NCBI GenBank assembly: GCA_965207805.1
Contig: OZ242312.1
Span: forward strand, 1,068,748 to 1,132,747
Source: Gemmatimonadota bacterium
GTDB lineage: Bacteria; Gemmatimonadota; Gemmatimonadetes; Palauibacterales; Palauibacteraceae
Direction of reading: 5' to 3'
Length of the DNA stretch: 64,000 nucleotides
The position numbers and the translations under genes are program-made. The notes under the pieces were generated by a model. That model ran no database searches, had not been told where the DNA came from, and worked only from the letters and a program-made list of their open reading frames with translations. The stretch's first letter is position 1. Every line of letters starts with the position of its first letter. Positions 5,904-63,064 of the stretch are shown one piece after another.

Positions 5904-6503
5904 ATGCGACGACTGCGTACACTCTTCCTCCTCGGCGCGCTGACCGCCGGCCCACTGGCGCTCGCGACGCCCGCCCCCTCCCTCGCCCAGAGCCGCGCGA
6001 ACGTGGCCATGGCGGAGAGCTGGCCGGAGGCCGATCCCGACGACGTGGAGTCGGTCGACAGCATCCTGACCGCCCTCTACGACGTGATCTCGGGCCCGGC
6101 CGGGCAGGCGCGCGACTGGGACCGCTTCCGCTCCCTGTTCATCCCGGAGGCCCGCCTCATTCCCACGGGCCGGTCCCCCGAGGGAGAACACGGCTACCAG
6201 GTGTGGAGCCCGGGCGAATACGCGGAACAGGCGGGCGGCTTCCTCGAACAGAACGGATTCTTCGAGCGGGAGATCGCCCGCACCGAGGAGCGCTTCGGCC
6301 CCGTGGTGCACGCGTTCTCGACCTACGACTCGAAGCGCACGGCGGACGACCCCGAGCCGTTCGCCCGCGGCATCAACTCGATCCAGCTCATGCACGACGG
6401 CGGCCGCTGGTACGTCGTCACGATCTACTGGGCCGCGGAACGGCCGGATCTGCCGATCCCGGGACCGTATCTGCCGTCCGGGAACGGAGGAGGTACCCCG
6501 TGA
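5904..6503 (+). CDS. Secreted NTF2-like/SnoaL-like small protein (hypothetical)
   Basis: Signal peptide MRRLRTLFLLGALTAGPLALATPAPSLAQS. C-terminal ...MHDGGRWYVVTIYW is typical of an NTF2-like fold. First gene of a 3-gene coupled operon. Confidence 0.55.
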   Translation: MRRLRTLFLLGALTAGPLALATPAPSLAQSRANVAMAESWPEADPDDVESVDSILTALYDVISGPAGQARDWDRFRSLFIPEARLIPTGRSPEGEHGYQVWSPGEYAEQAGGFLEQNGFFEREIARTEERFGPVVHAFSTYDSKRTADDPEPFARGINSIQLMHDGGRWYVVTIYWAAERPDLPIPGPYLPSGNGGGTP

Positions 6504-53722: not shown

Positions 53723-55027
53723 TCAGCGGGCGTAGAGCAGGTAGGGGCGGCGGAGCGCCTCGAAGGCGGCGACATCAGCCGCCCATTCCGACGTGATTTC
53801 GTCGAGCGGGGCGCCGCGGTCGATGGCGAGCCGGAGCCGGTCCGAGCCCGCGAGACGGTCGAAGTGCCGCACCCTCCACTCCCACGCGTCGCCGGAGAGC
53901 CGGCGCGCGGCGAGCAGCGCCGCCACCGCGGTCCGCACCGGATCGTAGGCCGACCGGTCCGTGACCGTGAGGCGGATCCCCGAGATCTCCTCCCCCCCGA
54001 ACCTTCCGTCGCTCGGCGACTCCGGCGTGAAGGTGATCGCCCGGATCTCGACCCCCGGCAGCGATGGGGCCACGGCCCCGATCTCGGCCACCCAGGCCTC
54101 GCCGTCCAGCCACGGCGCGCCGAGCACCTGGAACGCGGTCGGCGTCCCGCGGCCGACGGAGAGGTTCGTCCCCTCGAACAGACAGGTGCCGGGATAGTGC
54201 GTGGCGCTCTCCAGCGAAGGCATGTTGAGCGACGGCGCGATCCAGGGAAGGCTCGTCTCATCGAACCAGCGGTCCGCGGACCAGCCCGCCGCCGGGACCA
54301 CGTGCAACTCCACCTCCACGCCGAACGCCCCCCGATACAGGCGCGCGAGTTCTCCCGCCGTGAGTCCGTGCCGCGTCGGCACCGGGTACAGGCCAACGAA
54401 GGTCGCGTAGGCGGGGTCCAGCACCGGGCCCTGCGTGAGGCCGCCGATGGGATTCGGGCGATCGAGAACAATCATGGGGATGCCCGCGCCCCCGGCCGCC
54501 TCCATCGCGAGCGCCATCGTCGACACGTAGGTGTAGTAGCGCGAGCCGATGTCCTGGATATCGAACGCGAGCACGTCGATCGAAGCGAGCATTTCCGGCG
54601 TGGGCGACCGCGTCTCGCCGTACAGCGAGTAGATCGGCAGCCCCGTCCCTTCGTCCGTCGCGTCGTCGATCGCGGAGCCCTCCGCCTCCGTGCCCCGGAT
54701 CCCGTGCTCGGGCGCGAAGAGCGCCGCGAGTTCCGCGCCCGCGTAGCCGTGCAGGAGGTCGATGGAACTCGTGCCGTCGCGCCCCACGCCGCTCCGGTTC
54801 GTGATCAGCCCCACCCGCCGCCCGTCGATGAGATGCGAGGAGTCGGCGAGCAGCACATCGATCCCGGGCCGCACCGCCGATACCGGCGCGTCCGCCGCAG
54901 CGGGTCCCCCCTCCGCCTCGCCGCCCGCCGCTCTCGCCCCCGCCGCGTCGGCTCCCGCTTCCGGCCCCCCGCACGCGGCGACAGTAAGAAGGAAAAGAAG
55001 AGAGAGGAAACCGGCGAGCGGATTCAT
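53723..55027 (-). CDS. DUF1343-family exo-beta-N-acetylmuramidase (NamZ/YbbC-like), lipoprotein
   Basis: Start at the internal Met (MNPLAGFLSLLFLLTVAACGG, lipobox). DUF1343 family by length and architecture; the homolog of B. subtilis YbbC/NamZ. Confidence 0.7.
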   Translation of the reverse strand: MNPLAGFLSLLFLLTVAACGGPEAGADAAGARAAGGEAEGGPAAADAPVSAVRPGIDVLLADSSHLIDGRRVGLITNRSGVGRDGTSSIDLLHGYAGAELAALFAPEHGIRGTEAEGSAIDDATDEGTGLPIYSLYGETRSPTPEMLASIDVLAFDIQDIGSRYYTYVSTMALAMEAAGGAGIPMIVLDRPNPIGGLTQGPVLDPAYATFVGLYPVPTRHGLTAGELARLYRGAFGVEVELHVVPAAGWSADRWFDETSLPWIAPSLNMPSLESATHYPGTCLFEGTNLSVGRGTPTAFQVLGAPWLDGEAWVAEIGAVAPSLPGVEIRAITFTPESPSDGRFGGEEISGIRLTVTDRSAYDPVRTAVAALLAARRLSGDAWEWRVRHFDRLAGSDRLRLAIDRGAPLDEITSEWAADVAAFEALRRPYLLYAR

Positions 55028-55145
55028 CTCGCCCTTCGTAGGTTCGGGGCAGCGAGCGCGACACGCGGGGCGGGCGGAGGTCGACATGGTGCGGAGACTA
55101 GAGACGTCGGACGACCCCCGAAAGCGGGACGCGAGGGGGCGGGGG

Positions 55146-58100
55146 ATGGCGCGGGGGCGGATGGCCGCCCCGAGGCCGGCGGTTGCCACGGGGCGGACGG
55201 TCGTCGCCCTCGGGCTGGTCGCGCTCCTGGCCCTCGGCTCGTTCGCCTGCCGCTCCTCCTCCGCTCCCGCCGCTTCGGGTCCCGGCGGCCCGGGTCTCGC
55301 CGCCTCGGGCGCCGCCGGTGCGGGTCCCGCCGGGGTGGGCGCCGCGAATGCCGCCCCCTCCGCCCCCGGTGCCGCCTCCGATCCCGCTGCGACCGGAGTC
55401 GCCGCCGCCGATCCCGCCGGTTCGGGCCCCTCCGCCCCCGGCGGCCGTCCGGTCGAGTCCGTCCTTTCCGCCGACGCACGGGCCTGGGTGGAGGAGACGC
55501 TCGCCGGCCTCAGCCTGCGGGAGCGGGTCGCGCAGCTCGTGATGGTGTGGATGAGCGGCGGCTACGCCCCGAGCGACGACGAAGAGTTCACGCGGATCCA
55601 GTCCCTCGTACGGGACGACGCGATCGGCGGGATCGTGATCTCGCTCGGGACCCCCCTCGGATACGCGGCGCGGTTGAACCGGCTGCAGGCTTCCGCCGAT
55701 GTGCCCCTGCTCGTCGGCGCGGACTTCGAGTCCGGCGCCGGGTTCCGCGTGAGCGGCGTGTTCGCGCTGCCGAACATGCTCGAGATGCCCGGCGCGACGG
55801 TCCTCCCCCCCGCGATGGCGCTCGGCGCGGCGGACGACGAGGACTACGCCTACTCCGCGGGCCGGATCACCGGCATCGAGGCCCGGGCCCTCGGCGTCCA
55901 CATCACCTTTTCGCCCGTGCTCGACGTCAACAACAACCCCGCCAACCCCATCATCAACACCCGCTCCTTCGGGGAGGATCCGCAGCGCGTGGCGGCGCTG
56001 GGCGCGGCGTTCATCCGGGGCGCGCGCGACGTCGGCCTCCTCGCCACCGCCAAGCACTTCCCCGGCCACGGAGACACCGGGACGGATTCCCACGTCGCCC
56101 TCCCCATCATTCCCGGCGACCGCGCCCGCCTCGACAGCCTCGAACTCGTCCCCTTCCGCCGCGCGATCGCGGAGGGCGTCGACGCGGTGATGACGGCCCA
56201 CGTCGCGGCCCCCGGCATCCTCGGCGCCGGCGCCCCGCCCGCCACGCTCTCGCCGTACTTCATGACGGACATGCTGCGCGACGACCTGGGCTTCGACGGC
56301 GTCCTCTTCACCGACGCACTCGACATGGCCGCGATCGCGGACGACTACGGGGCCAGCGAAGCCGCGATCCGCTCGCTGGAGGCCGGGAGCGACGTCCTGC
56401 TCATGCCGCGCGAGCCGCTGCGGGCGATCGCGGCCGTCGTCGGCGCCGTCCGTTCCGGCCGGCTCACCGCCGAGCGCATCGACGCCTCCGCCCGGCGCGT
56501 GCTGGAGTTGAAGGCGCGGGCCCGCCTGCACGAAGGCGCCGAGGTCGACCCCGACGCCATCCCGCGGCTCGTCGGCACCCAGTGGCACGAGTCCTTCGCC
56601 CGCGGGGTCGCCGCGCGCTCCATCACCCTCGTCCGCAACGAGGCCGACGTCGTGCCCCTCGAGTCGCGCTCCGTGCTGTCCGTGACCTTCGCCGGATCGA
56701 ACGACCTCGCCGCGGGACGCGTCTTCAACCGCGAACTCGGCCGCGCCATGCGGGTCCGCCGCGCCCGGATCGGGTTCGACACCCACTCCGCCGTCTACGA
56801 CTCGCTCCTCCGGCGCGCCCGCTCCGTCGACGCCGTGATCTTTTCCGCCTACGTCCGGCCGGGCGCCGCCAGCGATTCCACCGACCTCCCGGACGAGGTC
56901 CGTGGCTTCTTCGACCGCCTCGACGCCGCCGGCCGCACCTCCATGCTCGTCTCCTTCGGCAGCCCCTACCTCCTCACGTCCGTGCCGGAGGCGAAGACGT
57001 ACCTCATCGCGTGGGGCGGGGCGGACGCCTCGCAGGGAGCCGCCGCGCTCGCGCTCCTCGGCGCGCCGATTTCCGGCCGCCTGCCGATCTCTCTCCCGCC
57101 ACGCCACGCGCTCGGCGATGGCCTGGTCAGCGGGAGCCCGGAAGCGGAAGCGGGACCGGGGCCCATCAACACGCAGGGTCCCCCGCTCGAGGGCGGACGC
57201 ATGCGGCTGGCGTGGGAGGAGTGGCCCGTCAATGTGGGGATGGATGGAGATTCCCTCGCCCGCGTGGACCGGATCATCGATGCGGCGATCCGCGACGGGG
57301 CTGCGCCCGGCGCGGTGCTCGCGGTGGGGCGGGGAGACCGCGTCGTCCGGCTGCGCGGCTACGGAAACCTGGATTGGGCGTCTTCCGCCACGCTCCCGCC
57401 CGGGACCGCCGCGACCGATTCGAGCCTGTACGACCTCGCGTCGCTCACGAAGGTCGTCGCGACGACGACGGGCGTGATGCAGCTCATCGACAGCGGCCGT
57501 CTCTCCCTCGACACCCGCATCGGCGAGCACCTGCCGGAGTGGTCGCGGGGCTGGAAGCGCGACGTCACCGTCCGCCACCTGCTGACGCACCAGGGGGGCC
57601 TGCCGCCCTTCCTTCCCTTCTGGCGCACCCTCCGTGGAGAAGAGGCCTACCGCGAGGCATTCGCCGCCCTCGACCCCGATTACGAACCGGGGGAACGGAC
57701 GGTCTACTCCGACATCGGGTTCATGACGCTGGGGTTCCTGATCGAGGAGATCACGGGACAGCCCCTGGACTACTACCTGAACGAGTCCGTCTTCCGTCCG
57801 CTGCGGATGACGGAGACCTGGTTCGATCCGCCCCGCTCGCTGTACCGCCGCACGGCGCCGACCGAGGTGGATACCGTCTACCGGCACCGGCACGTGCACG
57901 GGGAGGTGCACGACGAGAACGCCCACGCGCTGGCCGGCGTGGCGGGGCACGCGGGACTCTTCTCATCGGCCCGGGACCTCTCGAAGTTCGCCGCCTGGAT
58001 CCTCGCCGCCGCGCGCGAAGGCCGGAATCTCGCCGCCGCCGCCCGCCCCGCGCCCGGGCCGTATACGCGTTCCTTCTCCGCCCGTCTCGACTCGCCCTCG

Positions 58101-58442
58101 CCGGAGACCGTCGCGCGGTTCACGGCGCGGGCCGCTCCCGCCTCGAGCCGGGCGCTGGGCTGGGACACCCCCTCGGGGCGCTCGTCGGCGGGGGACTACT
58201 TCGGTGAAGGCGCATTCGGGCACACCGGCTTCACCGGCACGAGCTTCTGGGTGGATCCGGAACTGGACCTCTTCGTCGTCCTGCTCACGAACCGCGTGAA
58301 TCCGACCCGGGACAACCGGAAACACATCGCGCTGCGGCGCGCGGTGCACGACGCCGTCGCGACCTCGATCCGCGACCAGCCGGTACGCCCCCGCGATCCG
58401 GGTGGCGCGGGCGGCCCGGCGCCCGAGGGACGCGACCGCTGA
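55146..58442 (+). CDS. Fusion protein: GH3 beta-N-acetylglucosaminidase (NagZ-like) + beta-lactamase-fold serine hydrolase (AmiE/PBP4-like)
   Basis: Single uninterrupted frame. GH3 N-domain (...KHFPGHGDTGTDSHV..., ...VMTAHV...), GH3 C-domain (...GRLPISLP), linker, then SxxK (ASLTKVV), YxN-like (YSDIG) and ...HTGFTGTSFWVDPE... Start uncertain (ATG 55086, 55146 or 55161); signal peptide ...VVALGLVALLALGSFAC. Confidence 0.8.
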   Translation: MARGRMAAPRPAVATGRTVVALGLVALLALGSFACRSSSAPAASGPGGPGLAASGAAGAGPAGVGAANAAPSAPGAASDPAATGVAAADPAGSGPSAPGGRPVESVLSADARAWVEETLAGLSLRERVAQLVMVWMSGGYAPSDDEEFTRIQSLVRDDAIGGIVISLGTPLGYAARLNRLQASADVPLLVGADFESGAGFRVSGVFALPNMLEMPGATVLPPAMALGAADDEDYAYSAGRITGIEARALGVHITFSPVLDVNNNPANPIINTRSFGEDPQRVAALGAAFIRGARDVGLLATAKHFPGHGDTGTDSHVALPIIPGDRARLDSLELVPFRRAIAEGVDAVMTAHVAAPGILGAGAPPATLSPYFMTDMLRDDLGFDGVLFTDALDMAAIADDYGASEAAIRSLEAGSDVLLMPREPLRAIAAVVGAVRSGRLTAERIDASARRVLELKARARLHEGAEVDPDAIPRLVGTQWHESFARGVAARSITLVRNEADVVPLESRSVLSVTFAGSNDLAAGRVFNRELGRAMRVRRARIGFDTHSAVYDSLLRRARSVDAVIFSAYVRPGAASDSTDLPDEVRGFFDRLDAAGRTSMLVSFGSPYLLTSVPEAKTYLIAWGGADASQGAAALALLGAPISGRLPISLPPRHALGDGLVSGSPEAEAGPGPINTQGPPLEGGRMRLAWEEWPVNVGMDGDSLARVDRIIDAAIRDGAAPGAVLAVGRGDRVVRLRGYGNLDWASSATLPPGTAATDSSLYDLASLTKVVATTTGVMQLIDSGRLSLDTRIGEHLPEWSRGWKRDVTVRHLLTHQGGLPPFLPFWRTLRGEEAYREAFAALDPDYEPGERTVYSDIGFMTLGFLIEEITGQPLDYYLNESVFRPLRMTETWFDPPRSLYRRTAPTEVDTVYRHRHVHGEVHDENAHALAGVAGHAGLFSSARDLSKFAAWILAAAREGRNLAAAARPAPGPYTRSFSARLDSPSPETVARFTARAAPASSRALGWDTPSGRSSAGDYFGEGAFGHTGFTGTSFWVDPELDLFVVLLTNRVNPTRDNRKHIALRRAVHDAVATSIRDQPVRPRDPGGAGGPAPEGRDR

Positions 58443-59875
58443 CCTCTCTCGACCTCGCGATCCTCGTCGTCTACCTCGGCGGGATCACCGCCTGGGGAGC
58501 GTGGCTCGGCAGGGGCGCGCGCGGGGGCGAGGAGTATTTTCTGGGCCGGCGCGACCTGCCGTGGGTCGTCGTCCTCCTGTCCGTCGTGGCGACGGAAACG
58601 AGCACGCTCACCTTCCTCTCGATCCCCGGCATCGCGTACGGAGGGTCGCTCGCCTTCGTGCAGATCGCGGCGGGCTACGTGCTCGGACGGATCGCCGTCG
58701 CCGCCTGGCTGCTGCCGGCGTATCGCGAGGGGCGGCTGCGGACGGCCTACGAACTGCTGGAGGCCCGTTTCGGGACGGAGACCCGACGGCTGACCTCCGG
58801 CATCTTCATGATCACGCGCCTCCTCGCGGATTCCGTGCGGCTCTTCGCGACGGCGATTCCGCTCACGCTCGTCACGGGGTGGCCGCTCATCGCCTCCGTG
58901 CTCGTGATCGGGGCCGTCACCTTCATCTATACCTTCATCGGCGGCATCCGCGCGGTCGTCTGGGTCGACGCCTCGCAGATGGCGCTCTACCTGGCCGGCG
59001 GGCTCATCGCGCTCGTCGTCCTCGGCGGCGCCGTGCCCGGCGGATGGCCCGAGATCCTCGCCCGCGCCGGGGAGGCCGGGAAGCTCACCGTCATCGACCC
59101 GTCGCTCGACTTCGGGCGACCCTACACGCTGTGGGCCGGACTCCTCGGCGGCGCCTTCCTCTCCATGGGTTCGCACGGCGCGGACCAGCTCATCGTCCAG
59201 CGCCTTCTCGCCTGCCGCGACCTCGCCGCGAGCCGCCGCGCCCTCGTCGGCAGCGGCTTCGCCGTCCTCCTCCAGTTCACCCTTTTCCTCTTCGTTGGCT
59301 TGGGCCTCTGGGCGTGGTACGACGGAGCCGCCTTCGTGCGCGCCGACGAGATCTTCGCCGGGTTCATCGTTGAAGCGCTCCCGGCCGGCGTCCGCGGCCT
59401 GCTCATCGCGGGCGTGTTCGCGGCCGCCATGTCTACGCTCTCCAGTTCGATCAACGCGCTCTCATCGGCGGCGGCCTACGACTTCTGGGCGGCGTCCCGT
59501 CCGGAGGCGGACGAGCGGCGGATCCTGCGCGTAGGGCGGATCTGGGCCGTGGTGTGGACGGCCCTGCTCGTGGCGGCGGCGATAGGGTTCATCCCCCTGA
59601 GCGAGGAGAGCACCGCGGTGGAGGTGTCGCTGGGGATCGCGTCGCTCGTCTACGGCGGGCTGCTGGGCGCGTTCGCGCTCGCCCGCTTCTCGCGCCGGGC
59701 CACGAGCCGCTCGACCCGGCTCGGGATCGTGTTCGGGATCGGATCCGTCACCGCGATATGGATCGGGGCGCGGGCCGCGGTCGCCTGGCCGTGGTTCGTC
59801 CTCATCGGCACGGCGGTCACGGTGGCGGTCGGCCTCCTCGCCGGCTCCCGCCGCGGTTCGCCCGCGTCGGAATGA
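58439..59875 (+). CDS. Sodium:solute symporter (SSS) family transporter
   Basis: Typical SSS N-terminus (LDLAILVVYLGGITAWGAWLGRG...EEYFLGRRDLPWVVVLLSVVATETSTLTFLSIPG) is encoded upstream of the first canonical start (GTG 58586). The only in-frame candidate is CTG 58439, overlapping the upstream TGA (cTGA). 12-13 TM predicted. Confidence 0.65.
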   Translation: MTSLDLAILVVYLGGITAWGAWLGRGARGGEEYFLGRRDLPWVVVLLSVVATETSTLTFLSIPGIAYGGSLAFVQIAAGYVLGRIAVAAWLLPAYREGRLRTAYELLEARFGTETRRLTSGIFMITRLLADSVRLFATAIPLTLVTGWPLIASVLVIGAVTFIYTFIGGIRAVVWVDASQMALYLAGGLIALVVLGGAVPGGWPEILARAGEAGKLTVIDPSLDFGRPYTLWAGLLGGAFLSMGSHGADQLIVQRLLACRDLAASRRALVGSGFAVLLQFTLFLFVGLGLWAWYDGAAFVRADEIFAGFIVEALPAGVRGLLIAGVFAAAMSTLSSSINALSSAAAYDFWAASRPEADERRILRVGRIWAVVWTALLVAAAIGFIPLSEESTAVEVSLGIASLVYGGLLGAFALARFSRRATSRSTRLGIVFGIGSVTAIWIGARAAVAWPWFVLIGTAVTVAVGLLAGSRRGSPASE

Positions 59876-62220
59876 AGTCGCGGGAAGTCGCGGGGATGAG
59901 GTCGCGGCGGGCGAAGTCGCGGGGAGCACGCCTGCTGGCGGCGACCGCCGTCCTCTGGGCCGCCGCCTGCGGCGATGGGGAGCCGGACGTCATGGGACCC
60001 GCCCCCGTGCCGAATCGCGCGCCGGAGGCGGTGGGGACGATCCCCGGGCGGACGCTGCCCGTCGGCGAGGCGGCGACGGTGGACGTGTCGGCCCACTTCC
60101 GCGACCCCGATGGCGACGCCCTTTCCTTCACGGCGGCATCGTCGAACGCGGATTTCGTCGGCGTTTCCCTGTCCGGCAGTACCGTCACCATCACCGCCGC
60201 CGCCCGGGGCGTGGCCACGATCACGGTGACCGCCAGCGATCCACGGGGTCTCGCCGCCCAGCAGCGCTTCGAGGTCACGGTGCCGAACCGGGCGCCCGAG
60301 GCCGGGGACGCGATCCCGGCGCAGACCCTGTTCGTCGGCGAGACGGCAACCGTGGACGCGTCCGCCCACTTCGGAGACCCGGACGGCGACGCGCTCACCT
60401 ACGCGGCGACCTCGTCGAACGCCGAGATCGCGACAGTCACGGTCTCCGGGGCCACGCTGACGATCCAGGCCATCGCCGCCGGCGCCGCGACGGTCACCGT
60501 GACCGCGAGCGATCCCGACGGCGCCGGGGCGGAGCAGCGCTTCGAGGTGACGGTGCCGAACCGCGAGCCGGAGGCCATCGGGACGTTGCCCCCGCGGACG
60601 CTCGCAGTGGGCGAGACGGAATCCGTCGTCGTGTCCGCGTTCTTCCGCGACCCGGACGGAGACTCGCTCGCCTACACGGCGGCCTCGTCGAATGCCGAGG
60701 TCGCCACCGTCTCCGTGTCGGGCGACTCGGTGGCGGTCACGGCGCTCGCGAAGGGCCTGGCGACGATCACCGTGACGGCCACCGACGGAGAAGGCCTGGC
60801 CGCGGAGCAGCGCTTCGAAGTCACGGTGCCGAACCGCGCGCCCGAGGCCGTCGGGACGCCGCCGCATCGGACGCTCGAGGTGGGCAAGACGGCATCCGTG
60901 GTCGTGTCCCCGTTCTTTGGCGACCCGGACGGAGACGCCCTCACCTACGCGGCGGCCTCGTCCAATGCCGAGATCGCCGCCGTCGCCGTGTCGGGCGACT
61001 CGGTGGCGGTCACGGCGGTCGCGAAGGGCCTGGCGACGATCACGGTGACGGCCCGCGACGAAGAGGGCCTGGCCGCGGAGGTGCGCTTCGAGGTCACGGT
61101 GCCGAACCGCGCCCCGGAGACCGGGGACGCCATCCCGGCCCAAACGCTGTTCGAGGGCGACACGGCATCCGTGGACGCGTCCGCCCACTTTCGGGACCCG
61201 GACGGCGACCCGCTCACCTACGCGGCCAACTCGTCCAGTCCCGATGTCGCGACGGTCGAGGTCTCCGGCGATACGCTGACGATCCGCGCGGCCGCCGCGG
61301 GCGTCGCGCTGGTGACGGTGACCGCGACCGATCCGGAGGAGGCCGCCGTCGCCACATCGTTCTCGGTGACCGTCGTGCCTCCCGCGACCCCATTCGAGAT
61401 CGAACTCGTGTTCGCGTCGTCCATGACCCGGGCGCAGGAGGCCGCGTTCCAACGGGCGGCGGAGCGTTGGATGGCGATCCTGGCGCCGACGGACCTCCCC
61501 GACGTGCGGCTGAACCGGACGCTGGGCTGCCCGGGCGATCCGTTCGAGCAGCATGTCGACACGGTCGACGACCTGATGATCGTGGTCTCGGTGGCCGAAA
61601 TCGACGGTCCGCTCGGGACCCTGGGACGCGCCGGGCCCTGCTGGGTCCGGACCGCGACATCGCTGCCCCTCTACGGCCGGATCCTGATGGACGCCGCCGA
61701 CCTCGACCGGCTCGAGACCCGCGACCTGGAGGAGGTGATCCTGCACGAAATGGGGCATGTGCTCGGCATCGGCCTCATCTGGGATCGTCTCGACCTGCTC
61801 CGGAACCCCGCCTCGGCAACGTCGACACCGGACACGCACTTCGCGGGCCCGCTGGCCATCGCGGCGTTCGACGAGGCGGGCGGCACGGGCTACCCCGGCG
61901 CCAAGGTGCCCGTGCACAACGAGGACGGTCAGGGATCGCGGAACAGCCACTGGAGGGAAGCCGTCTTGACGCTGGAACTCATGACCCCGTTCCAGCACCT
62001 CGGGGTGGCCGACCCGCTGAGCGCGATCACCATCCAGTCGCTCGCGGATCTCGGCTACGAAGTCGACCCGACACTGGCCGACCCCTTCCGGCTGCCGGGC
62101 GCGGACCTCGCGCGCGCCATCGAGGCCGCGCCCAGAATCCCCTACGGCGACGACATCTGGACCGGCCCCCTGATCTTCGTCGACCCCAACGGCCGCATCA
62201 CCCGCGTGATCCCCAGGTAA
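59872..62220 (+). CDS. Surface lipoprotein: 5 tandem Ig-like (He_PIG/cadherin-like) repeats + C-terminal leishmanolysin-like (M8) zinc metallopeptidase domain
   Basis: ATG overlapping the SSS stop (ATGA). Lipobox ...LWAAACGDG. Five 91-aa repeats each containing DPDGDxL(T/S)(Y/F). C-terminal HEMGHVLGIG (HExxH) plus ...SHWREAVLTLELMTP matching the M8 third-His/Met-turn region. Confidence 0.75.
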   Translation: MKSREVAGMRSRRAKSRGARLLAATAVLWAAACGDGEPDVMGPAPVPNRAPEAVGTIPGRTLPVGEAATVDVSAHFRDPDGDALSFTAASSNADFVGVSLSGSTVTITAAARGVATITVTASDPRGLAAQQRFEVTVPNRAPEAGDAIPAQTLFVGETATVDASAHFGDPDGDALTYAATSSNAEIATVTVSGATLTIQAIAAGAATVTVTASDPDGAGAEQRFEVTVPNREPEAIGTLPPRTLAVGETESVVVSAFFRDPDGDSLAYTAASSNAEVATVSVSGDSVAVTALAKGLATITVTATDGEGLAAEQRFEVTVPNRAPEAVGTPPHRTLEVGKTASVVVSPFFGDPDGDALTYAAASSNAEIAAVAVSGDSVAVTAVAKGLATITVTARDEEGLAAEVRFEVTVPNRAPETGDAIPAQTLFEGDTASVDASAHFRDPDGDPLTYAANSSSPDVATVEVSGDTLTIRAAAAGVALVTVTATDPEEAAVATSFSVTVVPPATPFEIELVFASSMTRAQEAAFQRAAERWMAILAPTDLPDVRLNRTLGCPGDPFEQHVDTVDDLMIVVSVAEIDGPLGTLGRAGPCWVRTATSLPLYGRILMDAADLDRLETRDLEEVILHEMGHVLGIGLIWDRLDLLRNPASATSTPDTHFAGPLAIAAFDEAGGTGYPGAKVPVHNEDGQGSRNSHWREAVLTLELMTPFQHLGVADPLSAITIQSLADLGYEVDPTLADPFRLPGADLARAIEAAPRIPYGDDIWTGPLIFVDPNGRITRVIPR
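60004..61371 (+). repeat. Five tandem 273-nt (91-aa) coding repeats inside the lipoprotein gene; copies 3 and 4 are ~90% identical at the DNA level
   Basis: Repeat units begin with ccgaaYcgNgNgccNgag (PNRAPEA/PNREPEA) at about 60004, 60277, 60550, 60823, 61096. Long exact stretches are shared between units 3 and 4 (gtgtcgggcgactcggtggcggtcacggcg; tcgcgaagggcctggcgacgatcac). Confidence 0.8.
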
Positions 62221-62236
62221 GAGGACGACGCCGGCG

Positions 62237-62707
62237 TCAGGAAGGGTCCGGCTTGCCGAACCCGTGTACCACTGTCTCGGAGAGGGTGGCGAACTGCGCG
62301 GCGGCCTCCGTGGCCATCGAGTCGAGTCGCGCCTCGAACCCATCCATCCGCGCGTTGACGTTCTCATGCAGACGGACGACGTGCTCGCGGACATCGGCGT
62401 GGCCAACCCGCAGTTTGGACATCTCGTCGGCGAGAGCGACGAACCGGCCCTCCCACTTCACGTCCAGCGCTCCGAAGCGGTTGCCGATGGCCTCGAAACG
62501 AAGGTCCATCTGCTTGAAGCGGCGATCCACCGCCTCGAAGCGGTTGTCGAAAGCCTCGAAGCGGCGGTCGATGGCTTCAAAGCGGCGGTCGATGGCCTCG
62601 AAGCGCGGCTCGAGCGCCCGCACGATGGTGGCCGCCAGGGCGGCGTCGCGCCCGTTACGTGTGAATCTGCGGATCAACGATGTCCTCCTCGCACCCGGGA
62701 GTTGCAT
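62237..62707 (-). CDS. Small coiled-coil protein with seven tandem heptads (RFEAIDR-like), hypothetical
   Basis: EPRFEAIDRRFEAIDRRFEAFDNRFEAVDRRFKQMDLRFEAIGNRFGALDVKWEG...; 21-nt periodicity at the DNA level; no signal peptide; 156 aa. Confidence 0.55.
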   Translation of the reverse strand: MQLPGARRTSLIRRFTRNGRDAALAATIVRALEPRFEAIDRRFEAIDRRFEAFDNRFEAVDRRFKQMDLRFEAIGNRFGALDVKWEGRFVALADEMSKLRVGHADVREHVVRLHENVNARMDGFEARLDSMATEAAAQFATLSETVVHGFGKPDPS

Positions 62708-62743: not shown

Positions 62744-63064
62744 TCAACCGGATGCCGCTCCCCGCTGGTCGCCACGGTCGGCGGCCGGAGCGCCGGCCGG
62801 CTCGCCCCGCCGGAGCGCGGCGACCTCCCTGGTCAACTCGTACAGCTTCCTGTTCAGCCGGAACAGTTGGTCCTGTACGTATTCGTGCAGATTGAGGACC
62901 TCCCACCGCACGGCGACCACGTCGTTGCGCAGTTCGCCGTTCCTGAGCCCCGAGTCCAGGTTCATCCTTTCGAGCTTGCGGTCGAGCGCGTCGAACTTCG
63001 ACTCCAACCCCTTCGCGGCCGTCGTGCCGCTTGCCTCTTCGTGTAAATCGCTGGTGGTCAACAA
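62744..63064 (-). CDS. Small coiled-coil protein, paralog of the downstream heptad-repeat protein, hypothetical
   Basis: ...SKFDALDRKLERMNLDSGLRNGELRNDVVAVRWEVLNLHEYV... parallels ...RFEAIGNRFGALDVKWEGRFVALADEM... in the neighbour (shared (R/K)F(D/E)A(L/I)D..., (K/R)WE + coiled coil). 106 aa. Confidence 0.5.
   Translation of the reverse strand: MLTTSDLHEEASGTTAAKGLESKFDALDRKLERMNLDSGLRNGELRNDVVAVRWEVLNLHEYVQDQLFRLNRKLYELTREVAALRRGEPAGAPAADRGDQRGAASG

Follow-up and report, generated by a model that had tools for sequence, protein, structure and literature searches.

The window analysed here, a stretch of 64,000 nucleotides (nt) from contig OZ242312.1 of the Gemmatimonadota assembly GCA_965207805.1 (positions 1,068,748 to 1,132,747 of the forward strand), encodes a predicted lipoprotein in which a row of immunoglobulin (Ig)/cadherin-like modules precedes a zinc metalloprotease domain of the leishmanolysin type. 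The gene extends on the plus strand from position 59872, or from a second ATG at 59896, to position 62220 as a single uninterrupted frame closed by a TAA stop (62218-62220), and counted from 59872 its product comprises 782 amino acids (aa) in three parts: a lipoprotein signal peptide, five Ig/cadherin-like repeats separated from Cys33 by a short linker, and a C-terminal metzincin domain of 281 aa (Table 1). A look-up of the exact 782-aa product found no record in public assemblies, and the window contains neither a second M8 copy nor further copies of the repeat. A JGI contig assigned to the same species (L057) matches the window with 98.4% DNA identity over 1,692 nt, beginning inside the M8 domain. 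Candidatus Palauibacter orthologues (P0002/L001/L009, L005 and L008-L014) are 78-85% identical within the M8 domain, and their lipobox, 91-aa repeats and C-terminal tail correspond to those of the window protein.

The three motifs quoted for the C-terminal domain in the first-pass annotation, HEMGHVLG, NSHWRE and ELMTP, are all present, as is the arrangement expected of an M8 enzyme. Metzincins of other families share the compact motif HExxHxxGxxH, from which M8 is set apart by a long gap (~60-66 residues) before the third histidine, and in the window protein this distance, from H629 of the HExxH motif to H693, is 64 residues. An alignment of 37 sequences shows no variation at H124, E125, H128, G131 and H192 (domain numbering), and at least 90% of the sequences retain M203. 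The Pfam profile PF01457 (Peptidase_M8), whose cut-off is 21.0 bits, matches with a score of 21.8 (E 8.9e-5), relatives of the protein scoring 30-81 bits. While a single-sequence phmmer search of the domain against the PDB returned no match, a family profile built from the domain and 36 homologues retrieved leishmanolysin (1LML) with an E-value of 7.3e-12, in an alignment that spans HExxH, the long insert, the third histidine and the Met-turn and places 'sHWResvlalELMtP' opposite 'GSHIKMRNAQDELMAP' of 1LML, H693 being aligned with the histidine of 'GSHIK' and ELMTP with DELMAP. An AlphaFold (AF2) model of the domain (predicted local distance difference test, pLDDT, 84.4; predicted template-modelling score, pTM, 0.87) gave a concordant result, since in a Foldseek search 1lml was its top match and the only one below 1e-3 (E 2.8e-9, query-normalised TM-score, TMq, 0.62), with a target-normalised value (TMt) of 0.40 for a bacterial domain that spans part of the 1LML chain only. 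An M10/matrixin identity scored far more weakly (Pfam E 0.05; profile against PDB E 0.009 or weaker) and was set aside, as was the metalloprotease family NF038122 (20.9 bits against 80). The M8 assignment made from the letters of the sequence is thus borne out by profile and model alike, and on this evidence the domain is a compact M8-type metzincin with predicted catalytic activity.

Leishmanolysin, or GP63 (MEROPS M8, PDB 1LML), is also the closest reference point for what the bacterial protein has and lacks. Both share HExxHxxG, the insert of ~64 residues, the third histidine and a Met-turn 11 residues further on, and both would be tethered to a membrane by lipid, as predicted for the bacterial protein. 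Sequence identity is ~18%, however, and the bacterial domain of 281 aa is considerably shorter than mature GP63 (~480 aa), appearing to lack the GP63 C-terminal domain. The anchor is also placed differently, at an N-terminal lipobox in the bacterial protein as opposed to the C-terminal glycosylphosphatidylinositol (GPI) anchor of GP63, and the bacterial domain is preceded by Ig-repeat spacers, with no GP63-type pro-peptide segment evident between R5 and the catalytic domain.

The repeat array consists of five ungapped 91-aa (273-nt) units (60010-61374) in protein register, in agreement with a Tandem Repeats Finder (TRF) call of period 273 nt and 4.8 copies (60007-61308). The motif DPDGDxL occurs in 5/5 units in addition to 37 invariant positions, and its DPDGD core, likewise invariant in 5/5, is a putative Ca2+-binding (DxDxD) motif. 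Each of the Pfam profiles Big_9 (105 bits, cut-off 23.6), He_PIG (67.9, cut-off 24) and Cadherin_4 (56.5, cut-off 25.1) recognises five stretches, and Big_2 also matches as five stretches, the E-values of these Ig-domain matches ranging from 1e-18 to 4e-30, well beyond what chance could produce. Foldseek neighbours of one modelled unit in the PDB include the SraP cadherin-like modules, dystroglycan, the lambda gpV Ig domain, S-layer and PKD domains. Pfam, model and structural neighbours therefore agree on five Ig/cadherin-like modules, as originally proposed; the He_PIG/cadherin label then given to them reflects real but weaker overlapping matches, the best Pfam label being Big_9. The NCBIfam tandem-95 repeat family NF012211 stayed below threshold (58.8 bits, cut-off 90). 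R3 and R4 are the most similar pair, with 87.9% DNA and 79% protein identity as compared to 64-77% DNA identity for all other pairs, a value close to the ~90% of the first-pass annotation, which nevertheless overstated the case in describing these repeats as near-identical.

Table 1. Coordinates of the protease gene's features and of neighbouring genes, in window positions.
Feature	Position	Strand	Remarks
NamZ exo-beta-N-acetylmuramidase	53723-55189	-	
GH3 (NagZ-type) + beta-lactamase-fold (PF00144) fusion	~55120-58442	+	
Sodium:solute symporter (SSS/SSF)	58586..59875	+	429 aa; NCBIfam TIGR00813, E 2.6e-53
Signal peptide + lipobox LWAAAC	59872..59970	+	Cys33 at 59968-59970 (Cys25 from ATG 59896)
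Mini-repeat, 10-14 nt	59874..59925	+	GAAGTCGCGG, ~3 copies; spans start-codon region; TRF
R1	60010..60282	+	91-aa Ig/cadherin-like unit; Pfam Big_9, He_PIG, Cadherin_4; R1 of other species 84-89% DNA identity
R2	60283..60555	+	Ig/cadherin-like unit; Pfam
R3	60556..60828	+	Ig/cadherin-like unit; AF2 pLDDT 96.3, beta-sandwich
R4	60829..61101	+	Lineage-specific extra copy of R3-type unit
R5	61102..61374	+	Ig/cadherin-like unit; Pfam
'Mini-leishmanolysin' metzincin domain	61375..62217	+	281 aa, C-terminal
HEMGHVLG	61744-61767		aa 625-632
Third His, H693	61948-61950		Within NSHWRE, aa 691-696
Met-turn ELMTP	61975-61989		aa 702-706, 11 residues past H693
Conserved tail starting IPYGDDIW	62137-62160		Domain end
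Open reading frame (ORF), 156 aa	62237-62707	-	Convergent; no Pfam match
ORF	62744-63064	-	Convergent; no Pfam match

Comparison of the array with its counterparts at orthologous loci indicates how it came to have five units. In a distance tree of the units R1, R2, R3 and R5 are each orthologous between species (80-89% DNA identity), and in five related species the array is exactly R1-R2-R3-R5, with a single R3-type unit. The window array reads R1-R2-R3-R3'-R5, and other loci have departed from the four-unit form in their own ways: in L005 the R3 unit is duplicated (copies 92% identical), L011 reads R1-R2-R3-R2-R3-R5, L008 contains eight units of which one pair is 97% identical, and L029 is left with ~1.6 units and a change of frame. 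The version in L002-L004 (gene 6001-7398 in L002) joins R1 to a truncated 216-nt R2/R5 hybrid without 19 aa, and since its product is identical in these three independent assemblies it is probably a real deletion and not an assembly collapse. As reconstructed from unit sequences, whole-unit gain and loss has been repeated and independent, starting from the base form R1-R2-R3-R5, with R3 duplicated in the lineage of the window. The capacity for expansion and contraction of the array that had been anticipated from the repeats is thereby supported, as Candidatus Palauibacter orthologues carry ~2, 4, 5, 6 or 8 units.

At the N-terminus, the character of a lipoprotein processed by signal peptidase II (SPase II) was judged by a basic n-region, a hydrophobic h-region and a lipobox of the form [LVI..][AST..][AGS]C with its cysteine at position 15-35. 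In the window protein a basic n-region is followed by the hydrophobic stretch LLAATAVLWAAA and then Cys33, and MKSREVAGMRSRRAKSRGARLLAATAVLWAAA-C33 (or C25, counted from the second ATG) matches the PS51257-type PROSITE lipobox pattern. Orthologues carry VWVAAC, VLVAAC or LWVAAC, each followed by GDG, the pattern is found in 97/261 family members examined, and many long relatives start with the same '...AACGDG' lipobox, which is conserved in paralogues of 1,600-2,860 aa. The cysteine of the proposed anchor is thus kept in orthologues and across the family, lipidation itself being a prediction.

The position of the start codon bears upon the relation of this gene to the symporter gene upstream. 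The first candidate, ATG 59872, overlaps the TGA stop of the symporter (ATGA), and on this basis the two genes had been described as translationally coupled. The claim could not be upheld: orthologues show no overlap, the genes being separated by 24 nt in L001, where the frame corresponding to that of the upstream ATG is not open, and by 32 nt in L005, while in L002 the match to the signal peptide begins 27 nt past the symporter stop. Moreover, the lipobox cysteine occupies position 20 in orthologues, position 25 when counted from the next in-frame ATG, at 59896, and position 33 from ATG 59872. Since the signal-peptide length is then nearer to that of the orthologues, ATG 59896 is favoured as the probably better start. 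The L001 orthologue also differs in the copy number of the mini-repeat spanning this region and in its usable start codon. Co-transcription of the symporter and protease genes is plausible.

The architecture belongs to a large family, contrary to the earlier description of M8 domains as sporadic in bacteria. A word-indexed search yielded 1,501 proteins at E<=1e-3, most of them with PF01457 and the named ones from Gemmatimonadota, and an exhaustive search of 50%-identity representatives gave 6,166 clusters at E<=1e-3, of which 1,752 at E<=1e-30. Genomes carry several copies of the family, which is strongly expanded in Gemmatimonadota, where the lipobox-repeat-M8 architecture is, from the sequences retrieved, a common one; relatives with weaker matches come from Planctomycetaceae, Polyangiaceae, Trueperaceae, Algoriphagus and Verrucomicrobia. 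The closest relatives are those of the sponge-derived Candidatus Palauibacter irciniicola, rhopaloidicola and ramosifaciens, and several Candidatus Palauibacter entries (for example P0002, P0021 and P0092) are named by NCBI 'leishmanolysin-related zinc metalloendopeptidase' or 'Ig-like domain-containing protein'. The M8 domain is nearly always located at the extreme C-terminus, in proteins of up to 2,863 aa, and the modules ahead of it in long relatives are Big_9, LRR, Calx-beta or PPC. Repeat number in paralogues varies from 0 to 25; two of them place 25 and 21 tandem 90-91-aa repeats before the M8 domain (L030, 303-8888, 2,864 aa; L034, 2421-8900, 2,163 aa, respectively). Three M8 genes lie inside ~30 kb of one genome (L016, L023 and L025; NZ_OZ244149, 2.42-2.45 Mb). 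Isolated matches to the last ~30 residues of the tail (59-64% identity) were seen at L047 (8001-8096, outside any long ORF) and L048 (8001-8084), and probably represent what is left of family members that have decayed. The window gene is a further member of this named, automatically annotated bacterial M8 family. Literature searches on bacterial, sponge-symbiont or Palauibacter leishmanolysin yielded nothing relevant, and a published lipoprotein elastase of Flavobacterium was rejected as a precedent, being a gluzincin and not a metzincin.

In its general design the protein resembles other modular enzymes and surface proteins. Secreted bacterial metzincins of modular build with Ig/PKD/cadherin-like accessory domains, for example karilysin/MMP-like M10 enzymes and ColH-type collagenases with PKD domains, also combine a zinc endopeptidase with beta-sandwich accessory modules, M10 enzymes appearing among the weak secondary matches and the ColH PKD domain among the structural neighbours of the repeat. 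They differ in that the catalytic domain of the window protein is M8-type and its accessory modules are N-terminal, lying between the lipid anchor and the protease. Stalks built of SraP cadherin-like, Rib and Big_9/'tandem-95' modules belong to the same fold class and likewise vary between relatives by whole repeat units, although Rib-type repeats are near-identical, whereas the 91-aa units of the window have diverged (64-88% DNA identity).

Considered together, these features are best explained by an exported, lipid-anchored zinc endopeptidase held off the membrane by a rigid stalk of Ig modules, to which we assign a probability of roughly 0.8. Following export and lipidation the protein would be anchored in a membrane, in all likelihood the outer one, and exposed at the cell surface. 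The stalk of Ig modules, to which Ca2+ probably lends stiffness, would serve as a spacer placing the protease ~20 nm from its anchor, where it could cleave extracellular proteins or peptides, for nutrient capture or with host or matrix proteins as targets. The length of the stalk shifts over evolutionary time through whole-unit duplication and deletion. Display at the surface is argued for by the paralogues with 21-25 repeats, which would be too long for the periplasm.

Several points weigh against this reading. The PF01457 score clears its threshold by a margin of 0.8 bits in a match covering profile positions 161-332 of 529, and the start codon is ambiguous between 59872 and 59896. Localisation, whether at the surface or on the periplasmic face, is an inference of ours, as are lipidation, the binding of Ca2+ and the substrate, and literature searches found no biochemical characterisation of any bacterial member. 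Finally, the conserved site of the gene at the 3' end of a NamZ/GH3-beta-lactamase/symporter cluster could indicate a cell-wall-related substrate. Two of the alternatives considered below, concerned with host interaction and with cell-wall salvage, are refinements of the lipid-anchored protease model with respect to its substrate and do not contradict it.

The first of these, drawn by analogy with Leishmania GP63, would have the surface protease of a symbiont act on matrix, recognition or phagocytosis-related proteins of a sponge host, with stalk length and fast sequence change as signs of an arms race between the two. The origin of the closest relatives in sponges is in line with this, as are the multiple copies of the family within genomes and the joining of M8 in paralogues to LRR, Calx-beta and cadherin-like ('eukaryote-like') modules, some of these genes also adjoining LRR/Big_2 genes. 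Rates of evolution point in the same direction up to a point. When the window is compared with six related species, the M8 domain shows 0.08-0.14 nonsynonymous substitutions per site (dN) and a ratio to synonymous substitutions (dN/dS) of 0.33-0.55, as compared to a dN of 0.015-0.023 and a dN/dS of ~0.1 for the symporter in the same species, so that dN of the M8 domain is ~4.5-9 times that of its neighbour. Such fast protein change fits an exposed protein facing the environment or a host. However, the M8-domain dN/dS remains below 1, which reveals a constrained and therefore functional gene but no sign of positive selection. Furthermore, the family is also found in non-symbiotic Algoriphagus, Trueperaceae, Polyangiaceae and Verrucomicrobia, and the literature search gave no paper tying leishmanolysin to sponge symbionts. 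A host-interaction factor is on balance unlikely.

The second concerns the neighbouring genes. The symporter, 95-97% identical in protein (~94-95% in DNA) in several Candidatus Palauibacter species, is always found immediately upstream of the protease gene at orthologous loci, and in every such locus examined the order NamZ(-), GH3+Beta-lactamase, SSS, Ig-M8 lipoprotein is conserved. Together with the match to L057, the similarity of the symporter places the window in a Palauibacter-like member of the Gemmatimonadota. NamZ, the GH3 fusion and the symporter look like a unit for salvage of MurNAc and peptidoglycan fragments; the GH3-PF00144 fusion is itself unusual. The protease might then trim peptide stems or wall-bound proteins from scavenged murein, leaving NamZ, the NagZ-type GH3-beta-lactamase-fold fusion and the symporter to process and import the products. 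In addition to the conserved order, a distance of 0-32 nt separates the M8 gene from the end of the symporter gene, both being read from the same strand, and a scan that is uninformative in DNA of 71% GC detected no promoter- or terminator-like site between them. On the other hand, more distant family members (<=71% identity) occupy unrelated contexts, for instance with LRR/Big_2 genes or a single gene of the beta-lactamase fold as neighbours, and the link to the salvage cluster is therefore a matter of synteny within a single genus, perhaps by descent, which may or may not be functional. A dN several-fold higher than that of the symporter is also ill-suited to a tightly co-adapted metabolic partner, and leishmanolysin-type enzymes are protein endopeptidases that are not known to act as murein peptidases. 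A role in murein salvage is accordingly rather improbable. Downstream of the protease gene lie the two convergent ORFs listed in Table 1, the 156-aa one containing a 21-nt tandem repeat (62473-62613) that codes for ~7 heptads 'RFEAIDR'; its orthologues (137-165 aa) differ in heptad number and sequence.

A different question is whether the stalk acts as a contingency locus, its length switching often within a population through recombination between R3 and R4. Such a mechanism would draw upon the differences in repeat number between species at the same locus, upon the arrays that contain units 92-97% identical, and upon a +2-nt frameshift in repeat 3 (5965-5980) of one Ca. P. irciniicola assembly (L001, a circular 3.4-Mb contig) that splits the gene into calls of 288 aa and 411 aa, and is absent from a second, 98.5% identical assembly of this species with an intact frame (L009, 5164-5175). 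The frameshift is a local multi-base difference that could be either an assembly error or a real pseudogene, the former being equally possible. The R3/R4 pair itself, meanwhile, is poorly suited to frequent exchange, its longest exact in-register run being 32 nt at an overall DNA identity of 87.9%. With a dS of 0.158 (dN/dS 0.77), equal to that of the symporter between species (0.15-0.17), the duplication is not the recent event it had been taken for, and the two copies have stood side by side, escaping homogenisation, for roughly the time since the species separated. A same-species length variant was not found either, as no same-species contig spanned the array, and a metagenome scan gave eight loci, none exceeding 81% identity. 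Frequent switching within a population is consequently very improbable; the phase variation suggested by the first-pass annotation found no evidence in its favour, and the data support an array that changes over evolutionary time. Least credible of all is a catalytically dead adhesin with a degenerate M8-like binding module, for although the PF01457 score is marginal and Ig/cadherin-like repeats are common among adhesins, the zinc ligands, catalytic glutamate, glycine and Met-turn are invariant or nearly so among the 37 homologues and the M8 domain is under purifying selection.

What the proposed lipid-anchored protease means for the biology of these bacteria can be considered on two levels. 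By analogy with the parasite enzyme, mini-GP63 proteases on variable Ig/LRR/cadherin stalks might constitute a host-manipulation toolkit of sponge-associated Gemmatimonadota, a speculative and quite unlikely proposition as matters stand. If true, this toolkit would be convergent in function with Leishmania GP63, for example in cutting host matrix or recognition proteins so as to evade phagocytosis, with a stalk length tuned by duplication and deletion of units and a catalytic domain evolving fast under pressure from the host. As a single gene, the one described here is an ordinary family member of a type already caught by automatic annotation. The family itself is of wider significance, since the compact bacterial M8 domain accounts for thousands of clusters and is a recurrent C-terminal catalytic domain of very long modular lipoproteins in marine and sponge-associated Gemmatimonadota. 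Within it this locus offers an intact example whose repeat history is well resolved (R1-R2-R3-R5 and one extra R3), and it would lend itself to studies of the effect of stalk length upon a tethered protease, and of what these uncultured bacteria degrade.

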